Source: Eledone cirrhosa
Taxonomy: Eukaryota
Reading direction: 5' to 3'
Assembly: GCA_964016885.1 (NCBI GenBank)
Contig: OZ024765.1
Span: forward strand, 18,290,001 to 18,354,000
Length of the DNA stretch: 64,000 bases
Shown: piece after piece, positions 5,096 to 59,600 of the stretch
How the letters are laid out: each line of letters opens with the position of its first letter
How positions within the stretch are numbered: position 1 is the first letter of the stretch
Program-made: the position numbers and the translations under genes
The notes under the pieces: generated by a model
What the model saw: only the letters and a program-made list of their open reading frames with translations
Database searches by the model: none
What the model was told of the DNA's origin: nothing

Positions 5096-5733
5096 GACAG
5101 TTGAAATAACACGTCACAGATATTTTTACCAGCAAGAGACCTTTATTTTGTGGGGTGGTGCACTAAAAAAGCGGGTGGTAATGATGGTGGAGATTGTTTT
5201 CTCCTGGGAGGCGAAATACCTTAAGAGTTACTTCAACCCCTGAAGAGACCTGGACTCCCGCATTAGGGAACGGAGTATAGCAGCACCCTAATCACAGATG
5301 TGTGTGTCTAACAAATACATACACATACATATACATACATACACAGCCACACACATACATTTGTATATATATAAATATACAAATATATATATTTATATAT
5401 ATACGCCCATATATATGTATACATATACGTATATATATATATATATTTGTGTGTGTATATATATATAAGTATATGTATACATATATATGTGTGTTAATAA
5501 ATATATATATATATATTATATATATATTATATACAGATATATATATATATTATATAATATATATTATATAATATATATTATATAATATATATATATTATA
5601 TATTATATATATTATATATATATTATATATATATATATTATATATATATATATATTATATATTTCGTTTCTGAATTTGTTTAGCAAGATTCTTGCTAAAT
5701 AAAACAAAAAAAAAACAAAGAAAAGAATCCCCA

Positions 5734-5776
5734 GTCACTGAAGAGGTCACAGAATGTGTGACGAAAGAACTTTGAC
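5734..5776 (+). ncRNA. Minimal type I hammerhead ribozyme (family P2)
   Basis: GTCA-CTGAAGA-(G)GTCACA GAATG TGTGAC-GAAA-GAAC-TT-TGAC. The element runs to ACCCTCCCAAAGTATAACAA(TA)n near 5932. Confidence 0.7.
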
Positions 5777-5930
5777 AATATATAAACAACCATCTGGTTG
5801 TGGAACCAACCAACCAACCAACCGGAAATTTATAAATTCCTAAATTTATAAATTTATTATAATAAATTGAAGTGAAAGCAACTGGTGCGTGTGTTTCTTA
5901 TTGGCAACATAACCCTCCCAAAGTATAACA

Positions 5931-5973
<43 letters not shown>

Positions 5974-6042
5974 TATATAATATATATATATATAATATAT
6001 ATATATATAATATATATATATATAATATATATATATATATTA

Positions 6043-6118
<76 letters not shown>

Positions 6119-6257
6119 GAGCAAAACAAGATTCAATGAGTATATCAAAGAATGAGTTTTACAGTAGATTGGAAGCACTCTACGAATAATTAATTTTCAG
6201 ACTACCTTGATTAAATCTTAACCATTTAACATCTCAGGGTATGTCATGTATCATTAG

Positions 6258-6310
6258 ATTTTGTCTGATGAGGACGTACTGTTGTACATCCGAAATATGT
6301 ATAATAAAAT
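6258..6310 (+). ncRNA. Minimal type I hammerhead ribozyme (family P3)
   Basis: ATTTTGT-CTGATGA-GGACGTAC TGTT GTACATCC-GAAA-TATG-TA-TA-ATAAAAT. Confidence 0.65.
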
Positions 6311-6350
6311 GTAATTGATCAAAAGAACGTCTATTTTATTAATATTTGTA

Positions 6351-6382
<32 letters not shown>

Positions 6383-6387
<5 letters not shown>

Positions 6388-6971
6388 AAATGGGGAGAAG
6401 AATACTGCAGGTTGCACATGGATAACATGTAATAAAATAAGTCCCTCATCAGTGATTTGCCGACGATCATAGATATTTCATTGCATTAAAAATCATATAC
6501 CTCACGTCGGTGCAATAATAACTAAATTAAGTTATTAGGACAATTAAAACGCGTAAAGCGAGTGAGACAAGATAACAACAAAGAGGAGAGCTAACCGTAG
6601 AAGGAAGGGAACAAGCTTCATAGTTATTCTATTAGCATAAGCTAGGTGAATATATGAGCGCTTAGAAAAAAGACCTTTCGGGAACGAATTCAAATGTGAG
6701 AAAGAGAGAAAATGTTTTCGTCGCGAACGGGGTGAAGTGAGAGGAGGAGAAACAGTGAGTCAGTGAGTGGAAGTGTGAGGAAGAGTTAACTGACATGACA
6801 GAGGGGGCGAAAGAAAGTAGGAGAAACAGAGAGAACGAGGGAGCAGTAAGAGAGAGAGAGAGAGAGAAAAAAACAGAATCGCAGTTTAGGTAAATATATG
6901 TGAAAAAATGGGGAGAAGAATACTGCAGGTTGCACATGGATAACATGTAATAAAATAAGTCCCTCATCAGT
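6383..6971 (-). mobile_element. 518-bp-unit non-coding element with a 71-bp terminal direct repeat, inserted in (TA)n (family X, copy 1)
   Basis: 6383-6453 is identical to 6901-6971. Colinear with the diverged copy at 10255-10829. Confidence 0.8.
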
Positions 6972-6989
6972 ATATATATATATATATAT

Positions 6990-7210
6990 TAAAATAACAG
7001 ATAAAAGTTTAAGCAAAGAATCGCTGCTTTCACCCTAACGGGGTCTTCTGAAACTCAGAAGATCCCGTTCAGGGTGAAAGCAACGATTCTTTGCTTAAAC
7101 TTTAATCTGTTATTTTATAAATATTTGCTCTACGGTTCTTATATATTTGATATATATTTATCCTTATCGAGCCCTCTTTGGATTTTTGTCTTCACAATTT
7201 ATTATTATTA

Positions 7211-7212
<2 letters not shown>
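6990..7212 (+). mobile_element. TA-embedded fold-back element (family P4)
   Basis: Palindrome 6990-7097 centred on CTTCTGAAACTCAGAAG. Relatives at 27172-27395, 30887-31065, 33030-33070 and 35327-35977. Confidence 0.7.
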
Positions 7213-7266
<54 letters not shown>

Positions 7267-7360
7267 CCCTCTTCCTGCTATATCAAGCGTTAACCTAATA
7301 TATACCTTCCATATACTGTACCGATTGTGTTGTTATTTCTGTTTACCTTTTACATACATT

Positions 7361-7403
<43 letters not shown>

Positions 7404-7681
7404 GTGTGGATGTGTTAATATATAAATGCGTATGCCTGTGCCCCTAATTGTACACTTATGTGTGTATGTTGACCATTATGTGTGTATATGTGTATGTGAT
7501 AAGTATGTTTATGTGTCACCCTATAGATTAAGTTTATCATATTATCACAAGATTGTTTGTGCACCTAGCAACTAGAAGTTCAATTAACACAAACAAGTCT
7601 ACCGCCACGTATTCGTTTGACACGCTAGAAAGAACAGTTAAATCCCATATGCGCGTCTCCCTTGCCGTCCTCCGGGGCTGA

Positions 7682-7900
7682 CAGAATGGGTCGTAACTCT
7701 ATGCTGGAAAGCATGGCGTCCGACCCTCTACCGATACTGCCAATCCACCAGGTTTAATAATGCCCCAGGAACATAATATTTCAATATGATTGACTCCCGT
7801 CGAGGTTAACTTTGCCTTTCATCCTTACGGGGCCGATAAAATAAAGTACCAGTAATGTACTGGGGTATTTGCTGGCCTTGTGTCGAAAGTAGAAACAATT
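7682..7900. mobile_element. Rearranged SINE family A (5' part on minus, 3' part on plus)
   Basis: CCCTCTACCGATACTGCCAATCCACC (head, minus) and CGAGGTTAACTTTGCCTTTCATCC...AGTAGAAACAATT (body, plus). Confidence 0.7.
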
Positions 7901-8010
7901 ATTGTATATGTTCCTTATCGAGCTTTATCGAACAATGGTATGCAAAGTAAACACCAACAAGTCAAATAGACTAAAACGACTTCAACAAAATATTTATTAC
8001 GTTGTTACAT

Positions 8011-8713
8011 ATTGTTGTTATTGGTGGTGTTGGTGGTGGTGTTGGTGGTGTTGGTGTTGTTGGTGGTGGTGTTGGTGATGGTGGTGGTGGTGTTGGTGAT
8101 GGTGGTGGTGGTGGTGTTGGTGTTGGTGTTGTTGGTGGTGGTGGTGTTGGTGGTGTTGGTGGTGGTGGTGTTGGTGGTGTTGGTGATGGTGGTGGTGGTG
8201 GTGTTGGTGGTGTTGGTGATGGTGGTGGTGGTGTTGGTGTTGGTGTTGTTGTTGGTGTTGGTGGTGTTGGTGTTGGTGTTGGTCGTGGTGTTGGTCGTGG
8301 TGATGGTGGTGGTGTTGGTGTTGTTGTTGTTGTTGGTGGTGTTGGTGTTGTTGTTGTTGGTGGTGGTGGTGTTGGTGTTGGTGTTGGTGGTGGTGTTGAT
8401 GGTGGTGTTGATGGTGGTCGTGGTGATTGTGGTGTTGGTGTTGGTGGTGGTGTTGATGGTGGTGTTGTTGGTGGTGGTGGTGTTGGTGTTGGTGTTGATG
8501 GTGGTGTTGATGGTGGTCGTGGTGATTGTGGTGTTATTGGTGGTGGTGTTGGTGTTGTTGTTGGTGGTGTTGTTAGTGGTGGTGTTGGTGTTGGTGGTGG
8601 TGTTGGTGGTGGTGTTGGTGGTGTTGTTGGTGGTGATTGTGGTGGTGTTGGTGGTGTTGTTGTTGTTGGTGGTGGTGGTGGTGGTGTTGTTGTTGTTGTT
8701 GTTGTTGTTGTTG
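8011..8713. repeat. Degenerate (GGT/GTT)n trinucleotide tract
   Basis: Read directly from the sequence. Confidence 0.95.
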
Positions 8714-8812
8714 TGTGGCTTTCATTGTGTTAGACATTAATTGGTGTCACTGTGGAACGCATATCTACACAGTTATCAGTCACGTGACAGTCAGGGCCGT
8801 CACTGATAAGGT

Positions 8813-9396
8813 ATGGTGATGATGGTGATGACGATGATGATGGTGGCGGTGTTCGTGTTGATGATGAGGATGATGGTAATAATGATGATGATGATGATGA
8901 TGCTGATGCCGACGGTAATGATGGTGACAATGATGATGATGATGATGATGATGGTGATGCCGATGGTAATGATTGTGATGATGATGGTGATGATGGTGAT
9001 GATGGTGGTGGCGTTGTTCGTGTTGATGATGAGGATGATGGTAATAATTATTTCTACTTTTGGCACAAGGCCAGCAGCAACCCCAGTGTATTACTGGTAC
9101 TTTATTTTATCGACCTCCGTAAGGATGAAAGGGGCAAAGTTAACCTCGGCGGGATTTGAACTCAAACCGTAAAGGGACGTAACTCTATGCTGGATGGTAA
9201 TAATGATTATGATTATGATGATGATGAAAGTGATGAAGGCGGTGACGATGGTGGTGATGGTGATGATAATGATGATGGTGATGATGATGATGATGGTGGC
9301 GGTGATGCCGATGGTAACGATGGTGGTGGTGATGATGTTGATGGTGATGATGGTGAAGATGGTGGTGGGGATGGTGATGATAGTGAGGGCGATGCC

Positions 9397-9443
<47 letters not shown>
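8813..9443. repeat. Degenerate (GAT/GGT)n tract interrupted by a SINE-A (9045-9192, minus)
   Basis: Read directly. The SINE has the standard family A body. Confidence 0.9.
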
Positions 9444-9754
9444 CGTGGCCAGGTAATTGGGCCATCCTTTCCAATCCACCGGGGTCTGGAAATGTTTGAT
9501 TTAGGAACCCACCAACATGTAGTTCCCGATGTGGTGGTGCAGCATCTTGCTGGAAAATGATTCTTGGTTGAAGGTCATCTAGTTGTGGCCCCACATATTC
9601 AGTCAAAAGGTCAAGGTAAACATTTGCAGCAATTGATGTCTCGTTGAAGTAAAATGGACCAATGATTCGATTGCACATAATCCCACACCACATGGGGAAT
9701 CCCTTCAATACGTACTTCTGCTTCGCTGTATCCGATATTGTTTCAATACACCAT

Positions 9755-9755
<1 letters not shown>
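9444..9755 (-). mobile_element. Tc1/mariner transposase remnant
   Basis: MWCGIMCNRIIGPFYFNE...YLDLL...IIFQQDAAPPH...FLNQTFP matches the catalytic-domain motifs VWCG..IIGPFFF and FQQDGAPPH. A TIR-like CATGGTGTATTGAAA lies at the 9755 end. Confidence 0.85.
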
Positions 9756-9787
<32 letters not shown>

Positions 9788-9813
9788 ATATATATATAAC
9801 AGGAGGAGTAGTT

Positions 9814-9858
9814 GGCTTTGATAAGCATCAATAAATGCGAAACAAGGCCTAGTCAGCT
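9814..9858 (+). ncRNA. Type I hammerhead ribozyme with U3-A8 core (family P5)
   Basis: GGCT-TTGATAA-GCAT CAATAA ATGC-GAAA-C AAGGCCTA G-TC-AGCT. Confidence 0.75.
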
Positions 9859-10045
9859 TTATCTCCCCCTGTTTGCTGAAATTAAAGTAAGTGAGTCTGT
9901 CACTACTCTAAAACAATAGCATAAGGTCTTCGAAATGCTTTTAATTAAGCATACAGTGTATTGCAAAATACACTATATATACATTCATATATATATATAT
10001 ATAGCTATTTCAGAGCACCAATTCTAATATATTCCAGGATTTTTT

Positions 10046-10099
10046 CATTCTTATGATTGAAAGCAAAATTTTTTGCTTTTAAGAAACCACTGGTAAATG
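10046..10099 (+). ncRNA. Hammerhead motif with a G5 mutation (family P6), probably inactive
   Basis: CATT-CTTATGA-TTGAAAGCAAA..TTTGCTTTTAA-GAAA-CCA C TGG-TA-AATG. The intact relative is at 59130. Confidence 0.6.
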
Positions 10100-10192
10100 G
10101 AATAATTGCCTTATGTTGTTTATTACATAAATATTTAGCTCTGTTACCTACATAGAGCACTTTTTTTTCCTGGACTTTTCCGACGGAATTAC

Positions 10193-10254
<62 letters not shown>

Positions 10255-10829
10255 CATGAGAAGAATGAATACTGCGTGGTTGCACATGGGTTACATATGA
10301 TAAAAATAGTCCTTCATCAGTGATTTTCCAACCTTCATTGGTATTTCATCGCTTTAAAAATCATATACCTTCAGTTGGTGCGAGCAATAGCTAAGTAAAG
10401 CTATTGGGACAAGTAAATCGCGTAAAGCGAGTGAGACAAGTAAACAAACATAGAAGGATAGCAACGCAAAGATAGGAAGAAACAAGCAACATGGGAGTCC
10501 GATCAGCTTAAGCTGTGTGGATTTCATGAGCGAGAGACAGCAGACCGTCCGACGCGAGTGAGGTGTGAGCAAGAAAGGGCCCCACCTCAGGCCAAACGGG
10601 AGGAGGTGAGAAGGGGAGAAGCAGAGAGTGAGTGAGTGGAAGTGCGAGGAAGAGGCCAGTCGAGAGAAAGTGTAACTGACAGAGGGGGCGAAAGAAGGTG
10701 AGACAAATAGAGAGACAAGCAGTAAGAGAGAAACAGACAAACGCAGCTGGGGAAAATATATATAAAAAACATGAGAAGAATGAATACTGCGTGGTTGCAC
10801 ATGGGTTACATATGATAAAAATAGTCCTT
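10255..10829 (-). mobile_element. 515-bp-unit element with a 60-bp terminal direct repeat in (TA)n (family X, copy 2)
   Basis: 10255-10314 is identical to 10770-10829. Confidence 0.8.
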
Positions 10830-11351
10830 ATATATATATATAACGAAGGAAATGTGGTAAGGAACCAGATGGACCATAACGCACCAATAACTGTAATGAT
10901 GGCCTCATAAAATTCTTTCACTACAATCTCGTATTTAGTATTCCGTGCTACCTATTAAACTTTTCTGTAGCTTAGCAGTACCAGTGAGAGATTTGATGAT
11001 TGTGGAAGGGGACTAGTAACCAGAAATTGTTTTTTATATTTTTTATATATTTCCTCATTTTTATAATGACTTTTTTGTTTACTCCCTTTAGATTTACTTA
11101 TTGTTTCAACTCTCCCCCCCCCCCCCCTTCTCTAGTATACCTTTTTCGACCTTCTATACACTTACCTTAGAATCTGCTGTATTTTTCACTTTCAACGCTT
11201 GACTGGGTTTCCTCCACTCCCTCTCCCTCTTTCTTCTACTGGCAGGTTCAGCTACCCCTACTTTCCACAAAATGCCATGATAGAATCATATGTCTTAACA
11301 ACAAACTTTTGACCAATCCTTGTGACAATCACTTTTACCATATATGGAATT

Positions 11352-12467: not shown

Positions 12468-13220
12468 AGGCACAAGGCCAACAATTTTAACGTCGGTGAA
12501 AGTTGATTAAATCGACGCCAATGTATTACTGGTACTATATTGAGGCTAATACTGCCGATTATAATGGCTGTTTTTATTTAGGCACAAGGTCAATAATTTG
12601 AAGGGAAGAGCAAAGCCGATTAAATCGAACCCCAGTGTATTACTGGTACTTTATTGTGGCCCGACGCTCTACCAGTACTGTCAATAAGAATGGCTGTTTT
12701 TATTTAGGCACAAGACCAATAATTTGAAGGGAAGAGCAAAGCCGATTAAATCGACCCCCAGTGTATTACTGGTACTTTATTGTGGCCCGACGCTCTACCA
12801 GTACTGTCAATCAGAATGGCTGTTTTTATTTAGGCACAAGGTCAATAATTTGAAGGAAAGAGGAAAGCCGATTAAATCGACCCCCAGTGTATTACTGGTA
12901 CTTTATTTTATCGACTTCCGTAAGGAAGAAAGGCAAAGCTAAACTCGGCGGAATTTGAACTCAGACCGTAAAAGGACGTTACTCTATGCTACAGAGCATG
13001 GCGTCCCTCTGCCGATACTGCCAATCACCCACCCTCTATACAAATAATTGTTTCTACATTTGGCACAAGGCCAGCAATCATTCCAGTGTATTAGTGGTAC
13101 TTTATTCTATCGACCCCGTAAGGATGAAAGGTAAAGATAACCTCGGTGGGATTTGAACCCTGAACATAAAGGGCCATAACTCTATGCTGCAAAGAATGAC
13201 GTCAGGCCCTCTACCGATAC
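12468..13220 (-). mobile_element. SINE-A cluster with ~122-bp tandem duplications of the 3' end
   Basis: Repeated TAGGCACAAGG..GATTAAATCGACCCCCAGTGTATTACTGGTACTT. Full copies at about 12830-13026 and 13044-13220. Confidence 0.8.
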
Positions 13221-14605
13221 TCGTACTCTCTTATACCGACCATAGTACGTTACTGGTACTTTCTTATATTTACCACAGTACTTTACTGATACTTTCTTAT
13301 ATCAACCACAATATATTACTGGTACTCTCTTATACCGACCATAGTATGTTACTGGTACTTTCTTATATCTACACAGTACTTTACTGGTGCTTTCTTATAT
13401 CAACCACAATATATTACTGGTACTCTCTTATACCGACCATAGTATGTTACTGGTACTTTCTTATATCTACACAGTACTTTACTGGTGCTTTCTTATATCA
13501 ACCACAATATATTACTGGTACTCTCTTATACCGACCATAGTATGTTACTGGTACTTTCTTATATCTACACAGTACTTTACTGGTGCTTTCTTATATCAAC
13601 CACAATATATTACTGGTACTCTCTTATACCGACCATAGTATGTTACTGGTACTTTCTTATATCTACACAGTACTTTACTGGTGCTTTCTTATATCAACCA
13701 CAATATATTACTGGTACTCTCTTATACCGACCATAGTATGTTACTGGTACTTTCTTATATCTACCACAGTACTTTACTGGTACTTTCTTATATCTACCAC
13801 AATATATTACTGGTACTCTCTTATACCGACCATAGTATGTTACTGGTACTTTCTTATATCTACCACAGTACTTTACTGGTGCTTTCTTATATCAACCACA
13901 ATATATTACTGGTACTCTCTTATACCGACCATAGTATGTTACTGTTACTTTCTTATATCTACCACAGTACTTTACTGGTACTTTCTTATATCAACCACAA
14001 TATATTACTGGTACTCTCTTATACCGACCATAGTACGTTACTGGTACTTTCTTATATCTACCACAGTACTTTACTGGTGCTTTCTTATATCAACCACAAT
14101 ATATTACTGGTACTCTCTTATACCGACCATAGTATGTTACTGGTACTTTCTTATATCTACACAGTACTTTACTGGTGCTTTCTTATATCAACCACAATAT
14201 ATTACTGGTACTCTCTTATACCGACCATAGTACGTTACTGGTACTTTCTTATATCTACCACAGTACTTTACTGGTACTTTCTTATATCTACCACAATATA
14301 TTACTGGTACTCTCTTATACCGACCATAGTATGTTACTGGTACTTTCTTATATCTACCACAATATATTACTAGTACTCTCTTATACCAACCATAGTACGT
14401 TACTGGTACTTTCTTATATCTACCACAGTACTTTACTGGTACTTTCTTATATCTACCACAATATATTACTGGTACTCTCTTATACCGACCATAGTATGTT
14501 ACTGGTACTTTCTTATATCTACCACAGTACTTTACTGGTACTTTACTGGTGCTTTCTTATATCAACCACAGTATATTACTGGTACTTTCTTATATCAACC
14601 ACAGA
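13215..14605. repeat. 33-bp minisatellite with a 98/99-bp three-monomer higher-order repeat, SINE-derived
   Basis: Monomers TACTCTCTTATACCGACCATAGTATGTTACTGG / TACTTTCTTATATCTACCACAGTACTTTACTGG / TGCTTTCTTATATCAACCACAATATATTACTGG resemble SINE-A CAGTGTATTACTGGTACTTTATTTTATCGACC. Confidence 0.9.
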
Positions 14606-14782
14606 ACATCGACCTCACATCCCACAACCCACGCCCACCTCCACCGCCACCCCTACCTAAAATGTATAAAGTCTGTCTCGTGCCCGGAGGCCTCATCACG
14701 CCGGTGTTTAACCCGGTTTCCGTGGTGTTAAGTGACTGAGAGTACAATACTCCCACTCCCCTGGACAGGTCGCCAGGCCATT

Positions 14783-16335
14783 GCAGCTATTGCTGTTGCT
14801 TATCCTGGTTTAATGGCGTGAAGCGACTGAGAGTACTAGACTTCCTCCTGGACACACACCACTCCATTGCAGGGTTAAACTCCCAGCTATTGCTGTTGCT
14901 TATCCTGGTTTCATGGCGTGAAGCGACTGAGAGTACTAGACTTCCTCCTGGACACACACCACTCCATTGCAGGGTTAAACTCCCAGCTATTGCTGTTGCT
15001 TATCCTGGTTTCATGGCGTGAAGCGACTGAGAGTACTAGACTTCCTCCTGGACACACACCACTCCATTGCAGGGTTAAACTCCCAGCTATTGCTGTTGCT
15101 TATCCTGGTTTCATGGCGTGAAGCGACTGAGAGTACTAGACTTCCTCCTGGACACACACCACTCCATTGCAGGGTTAAACTCCCAGCTATTGCTGTTGCT
15201 TATCCTGGTTTCATGGCCTGAAGCGACTGAGAGTACTAGACTTCCTCCTGGACACACACCACTCCATTGCAGGGTTAAACTCCCAACTATTGCTGTTGCT
15301 TATCCTGGTTTCATGGCGTGAAGTGACTGAGAGTACTAGACTTCCTCCTGGGGACACACCACTCCATTGCAGGGTTAAACTCCCAACTATTGCTGTTGCT
15401 TATCCTAGTTTCATGGCGTGAAGCGACTGAGAGTACTAGACTTCCTCCTGGACACACACCACTCCATTGCAGGGTTAAACTCCCAGCTATTGCTGTTGCT
15501 TATCCTGGTTTCATGGCGTGAAGCGACTGAGAGTACTAGACTTCCTCCTGGACACACACCACTCCATTGCAGGGTTAAACTCCCAGCTATTGCTGTTGCT
15601 TATCCTGGTTTCATGGCGTGAAGCGACTGAGAGTACTAGACTTCCTCCTGGACACACACCACTCCATTGCAGGGTTAAACTCCCAGCTATTGCTGTTGCT
15701 TATCCTGGTTTCATGGCGTGAAGCGACTGAGAGTACTAGACTTCCTCCTGGACACACACCACTCCATTGCAGGGTTAAACTCCCAGCTATTGCTGTTGCT
15801 TATCCTGGTTTCATGGCGTGAAGTGACTGAGAGTACTAGACTTCCTCCTGGACACACACCACTTCATTGCAGGGTTAAACTCCCAGCTATTGCTGTTGCT
15901 TATCCTGGTTTCATGGCCTGAAGCGACTGAGAGTACTAGACTTCCTCCTGGACACACACCACTCCATTGCAGGGTTAAACTCCCAGCTATTGCTGTTGCT
16001 TATCCTGGTTTCATGGCGTGAAGCGACTGAGAGTACTAGACTTCCTCCTGGACACACACCACTCCATTGAAGGGTTAAACTCCCAGCTATTGCTGTTGCT
16101 TATCCTGGTTTCATGGCGTGAAGTGACTGAGAGTACTAGACTTCCTCCTGGACACACACCACTCCATTGCAGGGTTAAACTCCCAGCTATTGCTGTTGCT
16201 TATCCCGGTTTCATGGTGTGAAGTGACTGAGAGTACTAGACTTCCTCCTGGACACACACCACTCCATTGCAGGGTTAAACTCCCAGCTATTGCTGTTGCT
16301 TATCCCGGTTTCATGGTGTGAAGTGACTGAGAGTA
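14783..16335. repeat. 100-bp tandem array (~15.5 copies) within the 3' tail of a minus-strand CORE-SINE
   Basis: Exact 100-bp period. The SINE tail precedes it (14670-14785) and the CORE body follows (16340-16480). A single-copy relative lies at 22300-22480. Confidence 0.92.
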
Positions 16336-16667
16336 CAATACGGGACAGGTCGCCAGTCCATCACAGGGTTAACTCCTCAGCCATTGTTGGTACTCATTTT
16401 CAGATGAGTATACTGGACTTACGTGAAATGAAGTGTTCTACTCAAGAACACAACACACAACCCAGTCTAACACATTTACCACTAGGGTATTCCAGCCCGG
16501 CTCCTATTATTCATAATTGTTTCTATTTTTGTTTTTTAATATTGGCAGAGGAGATCAGTGTTAGATCGATGTTAGATACATATACATTGATGTTACATAC
16601 ACATATACACATACATACATACATACATACATACATACATACATACATACATACATACATACATACA

Positions 16668-31149: not shown

Positions 31150-31445
31150 CAGACTAAATAAAGATGGCGTAGGCATACAATAGAACAGGAGGAAACATAA
31201 TAGCACCACTGACGATGTTGCAGATGTGCAACGAAAGAACTTCGTTAGACTATGTATATGTGTTTGTGTCTATATTATATCTGTATTTTTGACCGTTGGT
31301 CAGTCAATGGTAAACATTGAGAACCGAATAAATTAAATTAACCGATATAAAAGATACAGAAGTGAAAACCAACCAAACAGTGAGTGTGTTCTGTTATTAA
31401 TTCTGGCAATATCATTACAATATGACCCTCCCCAAGTATAACAAT
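31150..31445 (+). mobile_element. Family P2 element with hammerhead (31205-31246)
   Basis: CTGACGA-TGTTGCA GATG TGCAAC-GAAA-GAAC-TT. Relatives at 40700-40965 and 51385-51562 (minus). Confidence 0.7.
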
Positions 31446-36299: not shown

Positions 36300-37130
36300 G
36301 AAGAATCGACCCCAGTAGTTGACTGGTACTTTTTTTATCAACCTCGAAAGGATGAAAGGCAAAGTTGTCCTCGTCGGGATTTGAACTCAGAGAGTTGAGA
36401 GCCGGAACTAATACCACAAGGCACCTCTATCCGACGTTCTAATGACTCTTATCAATTCCCTGCCTACTCTAACATTGATATAGGGATATAAATTTAGGGG
36501 AAACACAAGTCGATTATATAGCCCCTCCCCCCAATATTTAACTGGTATTTTATTTTATCGACTTGTTTCATCCTCACAAATAGCTAGACATGTGCTTAAA
36601 TTTGAAATCATTCGTAGATTGGCAGAATCAGTAAAGCGTCGGACAACAAGATTTGCCTTTCTTCTTTGCGGGGTCGATAAATAAAGTACCAGTAATACAC
36701 TGGGTCGATTTAATCGACCCCTCCCCAATTTTTTTTCAGATTGCTGGCCTTGTGTCTAAAGTAGAAACAATTATTGTTATTATTATTATGACATATAGTT
36801 GAGTTCAAATCCCGCCGAGGTTAACTTTGCCTTTCATCTTTACGGGGTCGATAAAATAAAGTACCAGTAATGTACTGGGGTAGATTTAATCGACTTTCCA
36901 CTCGCTCAAAATTGTTGGCCTTGTGCCTATATAAGTTATGACCCTCTACGTTCTGAGTTCAAATTCCGCCTAGGTTAGCTTTGCCTTTCTGTCGATAGAA
37001 TAGAGTACCAGTAATGCACTGGGGTCAATTTAATCATGTTTCCGCTCCCCTAAAAGTGTTGGCCGTGTGCCTAAATTAGAAATCATTATTGTTAGTAGTA
37101 TAAGGGCGGTGGTTTGAGAGAATCTGTAGA
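36300..37130. mobile_element. Cluster of SINE-A variants (minus 36300-36565, plus 36615-37130)
   Basis: Repeated B-box and GTCGATAAAATAAAGTACCAG bodies. Confidence 0.75.
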
Positions 37131-38960
37131 GACTTCTGGCGTCCTTGGCCCCAGGGCTACCTCCCTACTTACCACCATAGGCACTGAGCTTGCTACTACT
37201 AGCAGTGGAGACTTCTGGCGTCCTTGGCCCCAGGGCTACCTCCCTACTTACCACCATAGGCACTGAGCTTGCTACTACTAGCAGTGGAGACTTCTGGCGT
37301 CCTTGGCCCCAGGGCTACCTCCCTACTTACCACCATAGGCACTGAGCTTGCTACTACTAGCAGTGGAGACTTCTGGCGTCCTTGGCCCCAGGGCTACCTC
37401 CCTATTTACCACCATAGGCACTGAGCTGGCTACCTCTAGCAGTGGAGACTTCTGGCGTCCTTGGCCCTAGGGCTACCTCCCTATTTACCACCATAGGCAC
37501 TGAGCTGGCTACTACTAGCAGTGGAGACTTCTGGCGTCCTTGGCCCTAGGGCTACCTCCCTACTTACCACCATAGGCACTGAGCTGGCTACCTCTAGCAG
37601 TGGAGACTTCTGGCGTCCTTGGCCCCAGGGCTACCTCCCTACTTACCACCACAGGCACTGAGCTTGCTACTACTAGCAGTGGAGACTTCTGGCGTCTTGG
37701 CCCTAGGGCTACCTCCCTACTTACCACCATAGGCGCTGAGCTGGCTACTCCTAGCAGTGGAGACTTCTGGCGTCCTTGGCCCTAGGGCTACCTCCCTATT
37801 TACTACCATAGGCAGTGAGCTGGCTACCCCTAGTAGTGGAAACTTCTGGCGTCCTTGGCCCTAGGGCTACCTCTCTATTTACCACCATAGGCACTGAGCT
37901 GGCTACCTCTAGCAGTGGAGACTTCTGGCGTCCTTGGCCCTAGGGCTACCTCTCTACTTACCACCATAGGCACTGAGCTTGCTACTCCTAGCAGTGGAGA
38001 CTTCTGGCGTCCTTGTCCCTAGGGCTACCTCCCTACTTACCACCATAGGCACTGAGCTTGCTACTACTAGCAGTGGAGACTTCTGGCGTCCTTGTCCCTA
38101 GGGCTACCTCCCTACTTACCACCATAGGCACTGAGCTGACTACTCCTAGCAGTGGAGACTTCTGGCGTCCTTGTCCCTAGGGCTACCTCCCTACTTACCA
38201 CCATAGGCACTGAGCTGACTACTCCTAGTAGTGGAGACTTCTGGCGTCCTTGGCCCCAGGGCTACCTCCCTATTTACTACCACAGGCACTGAGCTTGCTA
38301 CTACTAGCAGTGGAGACTTCTGGCGTCCTTGGCCCCAGGGCTACCTCCCTACTTACCACCATAGGCACTGAGCTGGCTACTCCTAGCAGTGGAGACTCCT
38401 GGTGTCCTTGGACCTAGGGCTACCTCCCTACTTACCACCATAGGCACTGAGCTGGCTACTCCTAGCAGTGGAGACTCCTGGTGTCCTTGGACCTAGGGCT
38501 ACCTCCCTACTTACCACCATAGGCACTGAGCTGGCTACTCCTAGCAGTGGAGACTCCTGGTGTCCTTGGACCTAGGGCTACCTCCCTACTTACCACCATA
38601 GGCACTGAGCTGGCTACTCCTAGCAGTAGAGACTTCTGGTGTCCTTGGCCCTAGGGCTACCTCCCTACTTACCACCACAGGTACTGAGCTGGCTACTCCT
38701 AGCAGTGGAGACTTCTGGCGTCCTTGGCCCTAGGGCTACCTCTCTATTTACCACCATAGGCACTGAGCTTGCTACTACTAGCAGTGGAGACTTCTGGTGC
38801 CCTTGGCCCTAGGGCTACCGCCCTATTTACCACCATAGGCCCTGGGCTGGCCAGCCCCAGGTGTGAGCCCCGCGAGAGGGAATGTCACTTCCAGCGCATC
38901 TCCCTTACCATCCTCCAGGGAAACGCCTTCTCCATTCTGTCCGCCGGGGCTGTGCGGCGG
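37128..38960 (+). repeat. 79-bp tandem array (~21 copies) derived from a CRE-type RLE C-terminus, ending in the non-repeated LINE end
   Basis: The unit encodes AVETSGVLGPRATSLLTTIG. The last unit continues ...EPRERECHFQRISLTILQGNAFSIL, matching the P.A.ET.G..G...QR.S...Q.GNA motif of CRE-clade RLEs. Confidence 0.88.
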
Positions 38961-39164
38961 CCAGCAAGTGGGACCCCATTTGCTCATAATACTGAGAGAT
39001 GGGGAGGGCGAGAGAGAGGGAGGTTCGGCTATTCCGTGTCCGGACACACCGCACCCGTCATGTGCATCTTTTCAGAGCACTTTTTTCAAGGATCGCTTAG
39101 CCTAAAATCTGTACCAGTAATGTACTGGGATCGATCTAATCGACTTGCCCCTATCCCCAAAATT

Positions 39165-40744: not shown

Positions 40745-40790
40745 TTACCACTGATGATGTCACAGTTGTGTGACGAAAGAACTTTGATAG
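40745..40790 (+). ncRNA. Minimal hammerhead (family P2)
   Basis: TTACCA-CTGATGA-TGTCACA GTTG TGTGAC-GAAA-GAAC-TT-TGATAG. Confidence 0.65.
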
Positions 40791-40980
40791 ACTATATATA
40801 TATATTTATATCTGTATTTTAACAGTTAGTCAATCAATGATAAACATTGATTGCCAAATAAATTAACTATGGAGATATAAAAGATACAGAAGCGAAAACC
40901 AACCCAAACCAAACAGTGTGTGTGTTCTGTTATTATTTCTGGCAATATTATAACGATAACAAGATATATACACACACACA

Positions 40981-46898: not shown

Positions 46899-46901
<3 letters not shown>

Positions 46902-47341
46902 TGGAGCTCTGAAATAGCAATATATATATGGATGTATATATAATGTATTTTGCAATACACTTTATGCTTAATTAAAAGCATTTTGAAGACCGTAAGCTAT
47001 TGTTTTAAAGTAGTGACAAATTCACTCACTCTGATCTCAGCAAACAGGGGAGATAAGCCGACATGACATGTTTCGCTTTGGTTGAAGCTTATCAAGGCCA
47101 ACTACCCACCTGTCTACTGAGATCAATGATGTTATATTCTTATAGAAATCTAGTAAATAATCAGGAGCTGATTATGCAGAGCGGTTGTTGGTCAGGCAGA
47201 AATTAAAAATTAGAATTGGAGCTCTGAAATAGCAATATATATATGGATGTATATATAATGTATTTTGCAATACACTTTATGCTTAATTAAAAGCATTTTG
47301 AAGACCGTAAGCTATTGTTTTAAAGTAGTGACAAATTCACT
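46899..47341 (-). mobile_element. Family P5 element: 315-bp unit with a ~128-bp terminal direct repeat, in (TA)n
   Basis: 46899-47026 is repeated at 47214-47341. Homologous to 9800-10030. Confidence 0.8.
47056..47099 (-). ncRNA. Type I hammerhead ribozyme with U3-A8 core (family P5)
   Basis: GGCC-TTGATAA-GCTT CAACCA AAGC-GAAA-CATG T CATG-TC-GGCT. Confidence 0.75.
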
Positions 47342-48339: not shown

Positions 48340-48600
48340 AGAAGTTCTATTTAAATTGTTGGGATACAACAAGCAAATATTTTTATTTAGTTACATTTCT
48401 CTCTCTTATTCCTCTCTCTCTCTTTCTTTCTCGGTAACCCACGGCTTATTTAAATCTTCTCTAATTTAAAAATATCCAATACTAATTTACATAATAGTAT
48501 AAATAAATTTATAACCCCACTATCCGGGAGCTTCCAACAGTAATGGTTGCATTCTTTAAGGGTATGTCAATATTTATTTATAAAACTGCTCTATATTATA

Positions 48601-48662
48601 TTTTATCTGATGAAAGCACATCATAATTTAACTTGGTGTCCTTGAAATATGTATAATGAAAT
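48601..48662 (+). ncRNA. Minimal hammerhead (family P3)
   Basis: TTTTAT-CTGATGA-AAGCAC..GTGTCCTT-GAAA-TATG-TA-TA-ATGAAA. Confidence 0.55.
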
Positions 48663-48703
48663 AAATATGGTTTTATAAATATAGTTTCCATTTGTTAATA
48701 TAT

Positions 48704-49902: not shown

Positions 49903-50216
49903 AATGATATTAAATAAATGGAAACTATATTTATAAAACCATATTTATTTTATTATATATATTTCAAGAGTACCAAGACAACATTGGTACGCTTTCATCA
50001 GATAAAATACAAAGTTTGTTATCGGCTGGAAATTCACTGGATAGTGAATTTTCCAACCGATAAGCTATGATTTTCATGGGTATGTCTCTATTTATAAAAC
50101 AAACTTTGTATTTTATCTGATGAAAGCGAACCAATGTTGTCTTGGTTACCTTTGAAATATATATAATAAAATAAATATGGTTTTATAAATATAGTTTCCA
50201 TTTATTTAATATCATT
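49903..50216. mobile_element. Inverted family P3 element with two divergent hammerheads (49947-50008 minus; 50111-50172 plus)
   Basis: Arms of ~117 bp. Each reads ATTTTAT-CTGATGA-AAGCG.ACCAA..TTGGT..TT-GAAA-TATA-TA-TA-ATAAAAT. Confidence 0.75.
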
Positions 50217-57068: not shown

Positions 57069-57302
57069 AATGATGATATTTTTGGGGTCATTACAATTAA
57101 TGTATATATATATGTGATGTTTATATATATATATATATATAAACAAGGTTCGGACCTCGCTGTCGACACGGCCAGAGCTCAGCCGTTGGGGTCCTGAATC
57201 TTTTCATATATATATATATTATATATATATATACATATATATATATATAATTGGTTGCAATATATCGTTATCTTTTCTTCTGGCAGCAGTTCGTTCGACC
57301 AT

Positions 57303-58520
57303 CTGTATTACCTGCTTGTGTGTTGTATGTGGTCCTAGATGTGTTTATTACCTGCTTGTGTGTTATATATGGTCCTAGATGTGTGTATTACCTGCTTGTG
57401 TGTTGTATGTGGTCCTAGATGTGTGTATCATTTGCTTGTGTGTTATATATGGTCCAAGATGTGTGTATTACCTGCTTGTGTGTTGTATGTGGTCCTAGAT
57501 GTGTGTATTACCTGCTTGTGTGTTGTATGTGGTCCTAGATGTGTGTATCATCTGTTTGTGTGTTATATATGGTCCTAGATGTGTGTATCATCTGCTTGTG
57601 TGTTATATGTGATCCTAGATGTGTGTATCATCTGTTTGTGTGTTATATATGGTCCGAGATGTGTGTATTACCTGCTTGTGTGTTGTATATAGTCCTAGAT
57701 GTGTGTATTACCTGCTTGTGTGTTGTATATAGTCCTAGATGTGTGTATTACCTGCTTGTGTGTTATATATGGTCCTAGATGTGTGTATTACCTGCTTGTG
57801 TGTTATATATGGTCCTAGATGTGTGTATTACCTGCTTGTGTGTTATATATGGTCCTAGATGTATGTATTACCTGCTTGTGTGTTGTATGTGGTCCTAGAT
57901 GTGTGTATTACCTGCTTGTGTGTTGTATGTGGTCCTAGATGAGTGTATTACCTGCTTGTGTGTTGTATGTGGTCCTAGATGTGTGTATTACCTGCTTGTG
58001 TGTTGTATGTGGTCCTAGATGTGTGTATTACCTGCTTGTGTGTTATATATGGTCCTAGATGTGTGTATTACCTGCTTGTGTGTTATATATGGTCCTGGAT
58101 GTGTGTATTACCTGCTTATGTGTTGTATGTGGTCCTAGATGTGTGTATTACCTGCTTGTGTGTTGTATGTGGTCCTAGATGAGTGTATTACCTGCTTGTG
58201 TGTTGTATGTGGTCCTAGATGTGTGTATTACCTGCTTGTGTGTTGTATGTGGTCCTAGATGAGTGTATTACCTGCTTGTGTGTTGTATGTGGTCCTAGAT
58301 GTGTGTATTACCTGCTTGTGTGTTGTATGTGGTCCTAAATGTGTGTATTACCTGCTTGTGTGTTATATATGGTCCGAGATGTGTATTACCTGTTGTGTGT
58401 TGTATATAGTCCTAGATGTGTGTATTACCTACTTGTGTGGTGTATATGGTCCTAGATGTGTGTATTACCAGCTTGTGTGTTGTATATGGTCCTAGATGTG
58501 TGTATTACCAGCTTGTGTGT
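57303..58520. repeat. 40-bp minisatellite (~30 copies)
   Basis: Unit GTGTGTATTACCTGCTTGTGTGTTGTATGTGGTCCTAGAT. Confidence 0.95.
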
Positions 58521-58848
58521 GTTTACATTTGTAATATGAGGACGGCTATGTTGACAAATATTGTTACAACAGTGAGAGACATGTACATGTACTTAAGTTT
58601 TGTTAGGTTATACACCCCAACTTATTCAGCCCGTTATATTATATTTCCACCCATTTCTCTCCTTTGGCTAAGACCTTGTGCATCGGACTCTCTCTTCTGT
58701 ATATAACAGGCTAAGGTGTATGACCCAACGAAACTTAGGCACCTGTCTAAATGAGAGAAGGTGTTCTGTGGTAACACGGTAACTAATTATACTCGTCCTA
58801 TGGACTGAGTGCTCTTAGCTTCGGATATTTCTACTAAACTTATACAAC

Positions 58849-59116: not shown

Positions 59117-59129
59117 TGTATTAAATTTT

Positions 59130-59196
59130 CATTCTGATGAGTGATTTCAGACGTCTCTGTTGAGCTCGTCTGTCTTCGTGAAACCTTTGGTAAATG
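59130..59196 (+). ncRNA. Type I hammerhead ribozyme (family P6)
   Basis: CATT-CTGATGA-GTGA..CAGACG..CGTCTG..TCGT-GAAA-CC TTT GG-TA-AATG. Confidence 0.72.
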
Positions 59197-59600
59197 GAAT
59201 AATTGTCTTATGTTGTTTATTACATAAGTAAATATATATATTTGTGTGTGTGTGTAGATATATTGTTTATATAAATTCTTTTAACATCCATTGTTGGTTG
59301 TTTGAAAGTAATATATATAATGAATTGTCACTCTTTATTTTTCGAGGTTTACCCGACAACTGGTAAATATATACTATATATGATAAGTATATATATCATA
59401 GTAATTTCTTTATTGGTCACAATAATAATAATAATAATAATAAACAAAGATCAAAATACAGAGAGGACTCCATAAAAGTATATATAATAATGTTTTCTTT
59501 ATTAACCAGGAGGGTTGACATAAAGTATAACATTAAGGGCAATACAGGACGGTACAAATGGGCATTTCTGCGTGTAAAGAAAAAAAACAAAACAGAAAAT

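Follow-up and report, generated by a model that had tools for sequence, protein, structure and literature searches.

A predicted type SGC hammerhead ribozyme with a putative kink-turn in a high-copy non-coding repeat of Eledone cirrhosa

Twice on its minus strand, a 64,000-nucleotide stretch of the Eledone cirrhosa genome (the whole of which we call the window) carries a motif of about 100 nucleotides whose words are those of the hammerhead ribozyme. The question this locus raises is whether such words, in an unusual order, still make a ribozyme, and in what kind of element it resides. An earlier note, made from the letters alone, saw a hammerhead-like core with a split stem II outside types I-III, and proposed an undescribed topology or a conformational switch. 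We consider it probable that the motif is a self-cleaving hammerhead in S-G-C order, carried by a high-copy non-coding retrozyme that is probably mobilised by Penelope-like elements (PLEs). This reading is built from sequence: the block order, seven compatible pairings, a kink-turn consensus, tandem units, (TA)n targets, and fixed 3' with ragged 5' ends.

Strand order and hammerhead class

The strings given earlier for both copies are present letter for letter on the minus strand (6541-6441 and 10410-10309), and all six pairings named with them occur in each copy. A seventh can be added, 10.1-11.1, which is G-U in copy 1 and A-U in copy 2. Read 5' to 3', copy 1 runs A5, hairpin B, IIc5, D5, UGA, III, H17, I, UAA, IIc3, U11.1, GAAA, III, a 3-nt bulge, GAU, D3, one base, I, CUGAUGA, 10.1 and A3 (Table 1). 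Short-read contigs of four out of four public runs (kind unrecorded) span the motif stretch, which is therefore not an assembly artefact.

Table 1. Features of the two motif copies and their host elements (window positions)
Feature	Positions	Strand	Parts and remarks
SGC-order hammerhead ribozyme motif, copy 1 (predicted)	6441-6541	minus	From sequence and block-order scan
Copy 1, block S	6496-6501	minus	Stem III strand 16.x 6497-6501; H17 (A) 6496
Copy 1, predicted cleavage site	between 6496 and 6495	minus	After AUA; by analogy with the hammerhead core
Copy 1, stem I strand 1.x	6489-6495	minus	Partner 6453-6458
Copy 1, 3-nt linker after stem I strand 1.x	6486-6488	minus	
Copy 1, block G	6472-6485	minus	Helix IIc strand 6481-6485; U11.1 6480; GAAA 6476-6479; stem III strand 15.x 6472-6475
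Copy 1, block C	6441-6458	minus	Stem I strand 2.x 6453-6458; CUGAUGA 6446-6452; 10.1 6445; helix A 3' strand 6441-6444
Copy 1, 5' module (predicted four-way junction in stem II)	6511-6541	minus	Helix A 5' strand 6538-6541; hairpin B 6516-6537; helix IIc partner 6511-6515
Copy 1, bridging helix D and predicted kink-turn to stem III	6460-6510	minus	Helix D 6505-6510 with 6460-6465
Copy 1, kink-turn parts (predicted)	6466-6471, 6502-6504	minus	3n, 2n, 1n 6502-6504; 3-nt bulge 6469-6471; 1b, 2b, 3b 6466-6468
SGC-order hammerhead motif, copy 2 (predicted)	10309-10410	minus	Predicted cleavage after 10364
Host element, copy 1	6373-6971	minus	518-bp unit plus 81-bp terminal direct repeat; non-coding, pyrimidine-rich on the ribozyme strand
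Copy 1, terminal direct repeat	6373-6453 / 6891-6971		97.5% identical; (TA)n on both sides of the element
Host element, copy 2	10240-10829	minus	Unit of ~515 bp plus 75-bp terminal direct repeat; 72% identical to copy 1
Copy 2, terminal direct repeat	10240-10314 / 10756-10829		(TA)n on both sides of the element

A hammerhead can be described as three blocks, C, G and S, with types I-III being the circularly related orders CGS, GSC and SCG, and SGC a non-circular permutation known as type SGC (Eckert et al. 2023, PMC10085705). Scanning both strands of the window for all six orders returned two matches, the two copies, both SGC; the same scan on 60 block-wise dinucleotide shuffles gave five in total (0.08 per shuffled window), one of them SGC. 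The order is thus none of CGS, GSC or SCG, and the hammerhead likeness, the exclusion of types I-III and the split stem II all stand as the earlier note had them. Its strand order is not undescribed, since S-G-C was already published (PMC10085705); the periphery and the genomic setting we did not find described in the literature searched. At the Rfam gathering threshold there are no matches in the window. Among 35 weak matches at E<=10 over 5500-11000, one overlaps a copy (snR66 on copy 2, 26.6 bits, cut-off 65), and no hammerhead model matches either copy at that level over the same range.

The motif shares with HRIMA-1 and its variants (PMC10085705) the S-G-C order, the conserved core, a 3-nt linker between stems I and II, and an extra helix that ties the far sides of these two stems; of the published alignment of SGC variants, this comparison took in two rows. 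The linker is UAA here, each position being kept in 120 of 121 aligned rows (described below), and helix D joins the other sides of stems I and II; its partner strand precedes block S on the 5' side instead of following block C. In the published ribozymes the bridging strand comes after block C, the sequence 5' of stem III has no partner, and stem II is a simple helix of 5-6 bp with C11.1; the RNAs come from metatranscriptomes only, none from genomes of known organisms, as far as the available text goes (PMC10085705). Here we find U11.1, a stem II of one base pair with a predicted four-way junction, a predicted kink-turn, and a chromosomal repeat. The published SGC descriptor requires CGAAA and a contiguous stem II (PMC10085705, in the part available to us) and fails on the motif, which has UGAAA and two stem II strands that pair with a separate 5' module.

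The single base pair of stem II is formed by the base after CUGAUGA (G or A) and the U before GAAA (R10.1-U11.1). Beyond it both strands would pair with the 5' module, so that four arms meet: 10.1-11.1, helix A, hairpin B and helix IIc. One-pair stem II and non-G-C 10.1-11.1 pairs are both found in active natural hammerheads (PMC3088659), AUA is a natural hammerhead triplet (PMC1636495), and SGC ribozymes cleave themselves in vitro (PMC10085705). The core words, stems I and III in register and the 10.1-11.1 pair are those of a hammerhead, and self-cleavage is predicted; by analogy with the core we place the cut after AUA, as did the earlier note.

Pairing support comes from an alignment anchored on the core words. 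The anchor gave 293 matches and 135 distinct sequences, of which 15 were dropped as 5'-truncated, deleted or rearranged, leaving 121 rows with the window copies included. Standard pairs fill 92.2% of the 4,350 pair cells, against 28-47% in slid registers, and 304 cells are changed on both sides against 108 in column shuffles, which related sequences can beat without any structure. Double changes fall in 14 of 36 pairs, spread over hairpin B, IIc, D, III and I; stems I and III are paired in 92% and 97% of cells, with double changes, and helix D in 94.5%, with double changes in four of its six pairs. The 10.1-11.1 pair is A-U in 82 rows and G-U in 39, 10.1 being restricted to R by the anchor. 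Helix A shows no covariation in the 121 rows, and two of five whole-structure measures were no better than shuffles (pairs with a double change, 169/500; further pair types, 499/500).

Descent was controlled with a tree from the upstream spacer only, for 105 of the 121 rows (the 16 without 160 nt of clean upstream spacer were left out). On this tree pairing is kept or gained in 26 lineage-level changes and broken in nine, the corresponding numbers among private changes being 71 and 92 (p=0.0013). Minus one pair biased by the search design, the counts are 24/7 and 64/85 (p=0.0006), stable at three clade-size thresholds. The independent events are few, the copies being a handful of subfamilies, with eight simultaneous double changes at lineage level; it is in stem I, stem III, hairpin B, IIc and D that one subfamily departs from another. 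Almost no lineage-level change is seen in the U-rich loop of hairpin B (6524-6529, minus) or in the UAA linker (6486-6488, minus), which hints at a tertiary contact outside the present model.

Core conservation was read from 71 copies chosen by the tail alone and not by the core, among which overlapping loci may leave a few duplicates. Each invariant position of CUGANGA, GAAA and UH with A15.1-U16.1 is kept in 67-71 of the 71. Variation by subfamily is confined to N7 (U or C), H17 (A in 56, C in 15, never G) and 10.1 (G in 35, A in 35, hence R in 70 of 71). Both purines at 10.1 can pair with U11.1, itself kept in 67 of 71. Between subfamily representatives, conservation of the ribozyme exceeds that of aligned spacer columns by little (82% against 79%; 63% counting gaps), a weak point in its favour.

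Kink-turn and folding

The loop that would join helix D end to end with stem III has the make-up of a standard kink-turn as defined in PMC4316175 and PMC4382518: a bulge of 3 nt, G.A and A.G pairs, and C-G as the closing pair. In common with simple kink-turns such as Kt-7, SAM-I, U4 and box C/D it has G1b.A1n, A2b.G2n, the C(-1b)-G(-1n) pair, a variable 3b.3n and a Watson-Crick 4b-4n (PMC4316175, PMC4382518); unlike them, stem III itself serves as the C helix. Both GA steps are present in 113 of 121 rows, copy 2 being the one row with a private G2n-to-A change. The kink-turn purines are nearly fixed in the 71 tail-selected copies (G2n, A1n and A2b 71/71, G1b 68/71), and these four positions have no lineage-level change, against eight, five, four, two and two (21 in total) at the neighbours 3n, 3b, L1, L2 and L3. 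At 3b.3n the 121 rows have U.U in 39, the commonest, C.U in 26, U.G in 19 and A.G in eight. Box C/D-type kink-turns do not fold in ions alone, while G at 3n or C at 3b permits ion-only folding (PMC4382518). Membership of the box C/D snoRNAs is not indicated, with U.U at 3b.3n in only 39 of 121 rows and no Rfam match near its cut-off.

Eckert et al. remarked that in the crystal structure a long distance separates the bridging helix from the stem III tip (PMC10085705). A kink-turn holds its helices at about 50 degrees (PMC4316175), and a kink of that order between stem III and helix D would, in our model, close the gap. A crude bead model, which ignores threading and base detail, served as a plausibility check only. 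It takes A-form parameters and the distance from A9 to the scissile phosphate as inputs, and accommodates all helices together with a best worst-violation of 0.6 A. All 12 solutions obtained without restraint placed III and D at 7-86 degrees to each other, and attempts at 130 or 180 degrees did not succeed; on this model, closing all helices at once needs a bend below about 90 degrees. The helices need not be mutually exclusive, as the earlier note had feared: each nucleotide is used once in the pairings, and all helices coexist in the bead model.

We picture the fold as a nested scaffold of hairpin B and helices A, D and III, on which stem I and helix IIc would close as pseudoknots. The kink-turn would turn helix D around at the tip of stem III and let it tie the far ends of stem I and of the stem II branch, the role played in other hammerheads by loop-loop or pseudoknot contacts.

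The folding programs used leave out pseudoknots and kink-turns. Isolated copies give the nested scaffold A, B, D and III (z -1.6 and -2.7; plus strand similar), and isolated motifs overall have modest scores against shuffles (z -0.3 to -2.7). RNAalifold on the alignment recovers stem I and no other helix, and the scaffold is absent when both window copies are folded with 100-nt flanks. In eight natural monomers folded as circles hairpin B alone is stable, with a probability above 0.5 for III in two, D in one and A in none. In the minimum-energy folds of one further locus (L130) and of flanked copy 1, D3 pairs with CUGAUGA (6446-6466, minus), an alternative hairpin that would silence the core.

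The host element and its genomic family

Each copy sits in a terminally repeated element (Table 1) whose units are ~67% pyrimidine on the ribozyme strand. Only short low-complexity frames occur in the unit, with no reverse transcriptase (RT) or GIY-YIG frame, so it is not an autonomous PLE. ARAGORN reports no tRNA in the window, and therefore there is no full tRNA head of a SINE. The family extends well beyond the two copies first noticed, with thousands of members in the 3.0 Gb genome. One 19-mer has 6,050 exact matches (control 0), the pattern GAAA-N14-28-CTGANGARGBAC has 18,201 against 205 in the control, a count of the core pattern rather than of whole motifs, and a tail pattern has 10,289. 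Units are non-coding, mostly 460-800 bp, tandem or terminally repeated and set in (TA)n, with ~410 to 800 bp between successive ribozymes. Tandem arrays are frequent and reach at least 19 units (L157), and inverted 5' pieces of the element occur at two loci (L008, L094). At another locus (L150, 4656-5020, plus strand) there are diverged, 5'-truncated relatives that differ in D3, the stem I strand and the tail and may represent an older subfamily.

A flush end in (TA)n is seen in 82 of 85 insertions, and a start in (TA)n in 56. On the 3' side the ends gather at two CAUAU-like points, 65-66 or 103-125 nt past the predicted cut, and 5' ends are ragged; from fixed 3' and ragged 5' ends we infer that the ribozyme strand is the RNA that was reverse-transcribed. 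Two 3'-truncated insertions were left out of the 5'-end counts. An excess of 5' ends just after the predicted cut (27/82) was considered as a trace of cleavage and set aside, being matched by a similar excess of TA/AT dinucleotides at that place (microhomology). The excess in later passes (15/27 against 12/83, p=5e-5) points to unit-length templates, with which cleaved linear RNA, circles and short source copies are all compatible.

These features place the element close to the non-LTR retrozymes of animals. Those too are built of tandem non-coding units, each bearing a single hammerhead; they range from monomers up to long arrays and reach thousands of copies in PLE-rich genomes (PMC7229834; bioRxiv 10.64898/2026.07.22.740005). 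Short, non-coding, high-copy tandem units with a hammerhead are all present here, but the hammerhead is SGC and the units mostly 460-800 bp, whereas the published elements have type I hammerheads and units of mostly 150-450 bp (same sources). The type I descriptors of published retrozyme surveys would miss the SGC motif.

Partial tandems and inverted 5' pieces are also traits of PLEs (bioRxiv 10.1101/2021.04.23.441226). The element shares both with PLEs including the Naiad clade, along with a short tail after the ribozyme and insertion into (TA)n (same source), and thus has the insertion signature of PLEs, microsatellite targets included; unlike them it is without RT or endonuclease frame, and we found no sequence link to a particular PLE. 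Autonomous PLE frames are abundant in the genome. One locus (L061) has RVT_1 and GIY-YIG and two other frames have no Pfam match; twelve additional PLE stretches were read for four long frames only. Among 80 PLE-centred loci scanned for every permutation (50 GIY-YIG, of which 30 were the top-ranked and 20 were longer stretches, and 30 of a second family), none has a PLE whose own UTR bears the SGC motif: the SGC matches, two in the 50 GIY-YIG loci and those beside L026 and L191 (the seed locus), are ordinary repeat copies. PLE families with a hammerhead in the 3' UTR carry type I forms, and none of the PLE loci looked at was identified as having an N-terminal endonuclease (Naiad).

At 5730-5780 (plus) the window has a piece of 3' UTR that includes a minimal type I hammerhead and belongs to a young, very abundant PLE family (loci L191-L232), whose frames run up to 1,257 aa (RT, then CxxC, then GIY-YIG) and whose insertions end in (TA)n. 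The help of a PLE we infer, and this family is a candidate helper for the SGC element. Tandem read-through transcripts would be cut after AUA or AUC into units of 460-800 nt, and with both unit ends held by four helices re-ligation into circles may be favoured. A Penelope-like RT/GIY-YIG protein acting in trans could then prime at the internal CAUAU-like tail on nicked (TA)n, after which the RNA would be copied back into the genome.

Five further motifs like canonical type I hammerheads lie in the window, at 6253-6315, 48595-48667, 50105-50177 and 59122-59204 (plus) and 49942-50013 (minus). Four have a short TA-rich stem III and an AUA triplet, several have A10.1-U11.1, and the pair near 50,000 is inverted. 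Additional type I hammerhead-like 3' ends of PLE-like repeats are found at 31200-31260 and 40745-40805 (both plus). Resident type I hammerheads share with the SGC motif the words CUGAUGA-GGAC, GAAAUA and AUA, and are a possible source of the rearrangement.

Alternative explanations and wider meaning

Among the alternatives, one keeps the hammerhead chemistry and adds a gate, and we hold it possible, if well short of our preferred reading. The resting fold would be inactive, its purine-rich ribozyme strands pairing with pyrimidine-rich spacer or D3 with CUGAUGA, and activity would come co-transcriptionally or through a protein of the L7Ae family (15.5K/Snu13, L30e) bound to the kink-turn. Full-context folding favours such alternatives, although with a program that does not score pseudoknots. 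U.U as the commonest 3b.3n pair (39/121) points the same way, box C/D-type kink-turns needing more than ions to fold (PMC4382518), and Eckert et al. raised a helper protein for slow SGC ribozymes (PMC10085705); yet 3b.3n is varied (A.G in 8, C.U in 26, U.G in 19), and G at 3n or C at 3b allows folding in ions alone (PMC4382518). A conformational switch, as the earlier note suggested, may be a secondary property. Rather unlikely, in our judgement, is a catalytic unit assembled in trans or between tandem units, with helices I and IIc pairing across two monomers in the manner of the minimal type I hammerheads of PLEs and salamander retrozymes. Tandem arrays are frequent and dimeric action is common in animal retrozymes (PMC7229834), but stem III is a full, non-palindromic helix of 5 bp, every pairing fits within 101 nt and closes sterically in the bead model, and SGC constructs cleave as single molecules (PMC10085705).

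We give still less credence to a structured but non-catalytic RNA, a protein site for loading the RT or a box C/D-like module, that keeps hammerhead words from an ancestral PLE ribozyme. The kink-turn is a protein-binding motif, there is the one weak snoRNA match on copy 2, and the resident type I hammerheads have words in common with the motif; against this, the unpaired catalytic positions are fixed across subfamilies with only the tolerant N7, H17 and 10.1 varying, and 3n and 3b vary, as they may not in box C/D. Chance pairing within an AT-rich repeat, multiplied by descent, seems to us highly improbable. It could draw on the modest folding z-scores and on the ease with which related sequences beat column shuffles, but the comparison of shared with private changes controls for descent and disfavours it, as do the rarity of descriptor matches in shuffled windows (0.08 each) and the spread of double changes over five separate helices.

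Returning to the self-cleaving SGC hammerhead as our preferred reading, we lean somewhat towards regarding it as a double first, a non-circularly permuted ribozyme that an animal genome encodes at high copy and a naturally occurring hammerhead with a closed-cage architecture, maybe switched by a host protein and maybe driving a retrozyme family that is invisible to current screens. In such a cage the kink-turn at the stem III tip and the four-way junction in stem II would replace the loop-loop contact. The S-G-C order was already known; the new parts are the 1-bp stem II with its predicted four-way junction, the putative kink-turn linking stem III to the bridging helix, and the high-copy genomic retroelement setting, of which the earlier note had neither the kink-turn nor the host element. 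A literature search, with subscription journals largely outside it, brought up neither an SGC ribozyme in a genome nor a hammerhead with a natural kink-turn. In the available part of PMC10162972 no such SGC, kink-turn or junction variant appears, and in that of PMC13725137 there is only a citation of the 2023 paper and a mention of 'additional helices'. The architecture pattern matched 10 metagenome and four viral loci, none with stems (best, a 3-bp stem I), in collections that hold few animal genomes.

Type SGC ribozymes have otherwise come from unassigned metatranscriptome contigs, so that host, role and the origin of the non-circular permutation were questions (PMC10085705, as far as its available text goes). 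A genomic family of ~18,000 matches with several subfamilies and canonical type I hammerheads nearby makes those questions testable in one organism. Through a natural kink-turn in a hammerhead, host proteins would have a concrete means of controlling self-cleavage, and engineered switches would gain a ready-made scaffold. Neither Rfam nor type I retrozyme screens nor the published SGC descriptor picks up the motif, so that counts of ribozymes in animal genomes may be too low; if our reading is right, other animal repeats, and PLE clades reported without hammerheads, may hide permuted ones.

The neighbourhood of the two copies is itself rich in repeats. Immediately past the (TA)n that borders copy 1 on its 5' side is a 143-bp palindrome (6982-7124) formed by two inverted pieces of another repeat, and at 9801-9876 (plus) a weak Hammerhead_HH9 match (18 bits, cut-off 52) with a degenerate core falls in a repeat common to ~46,900-47,100. 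Minisatellite arrays occupy 13077-14526 (33-bp units), 14684-16483 (100 bp), 36968-39004 (79 bp) and 57184-58523 (40 bp).
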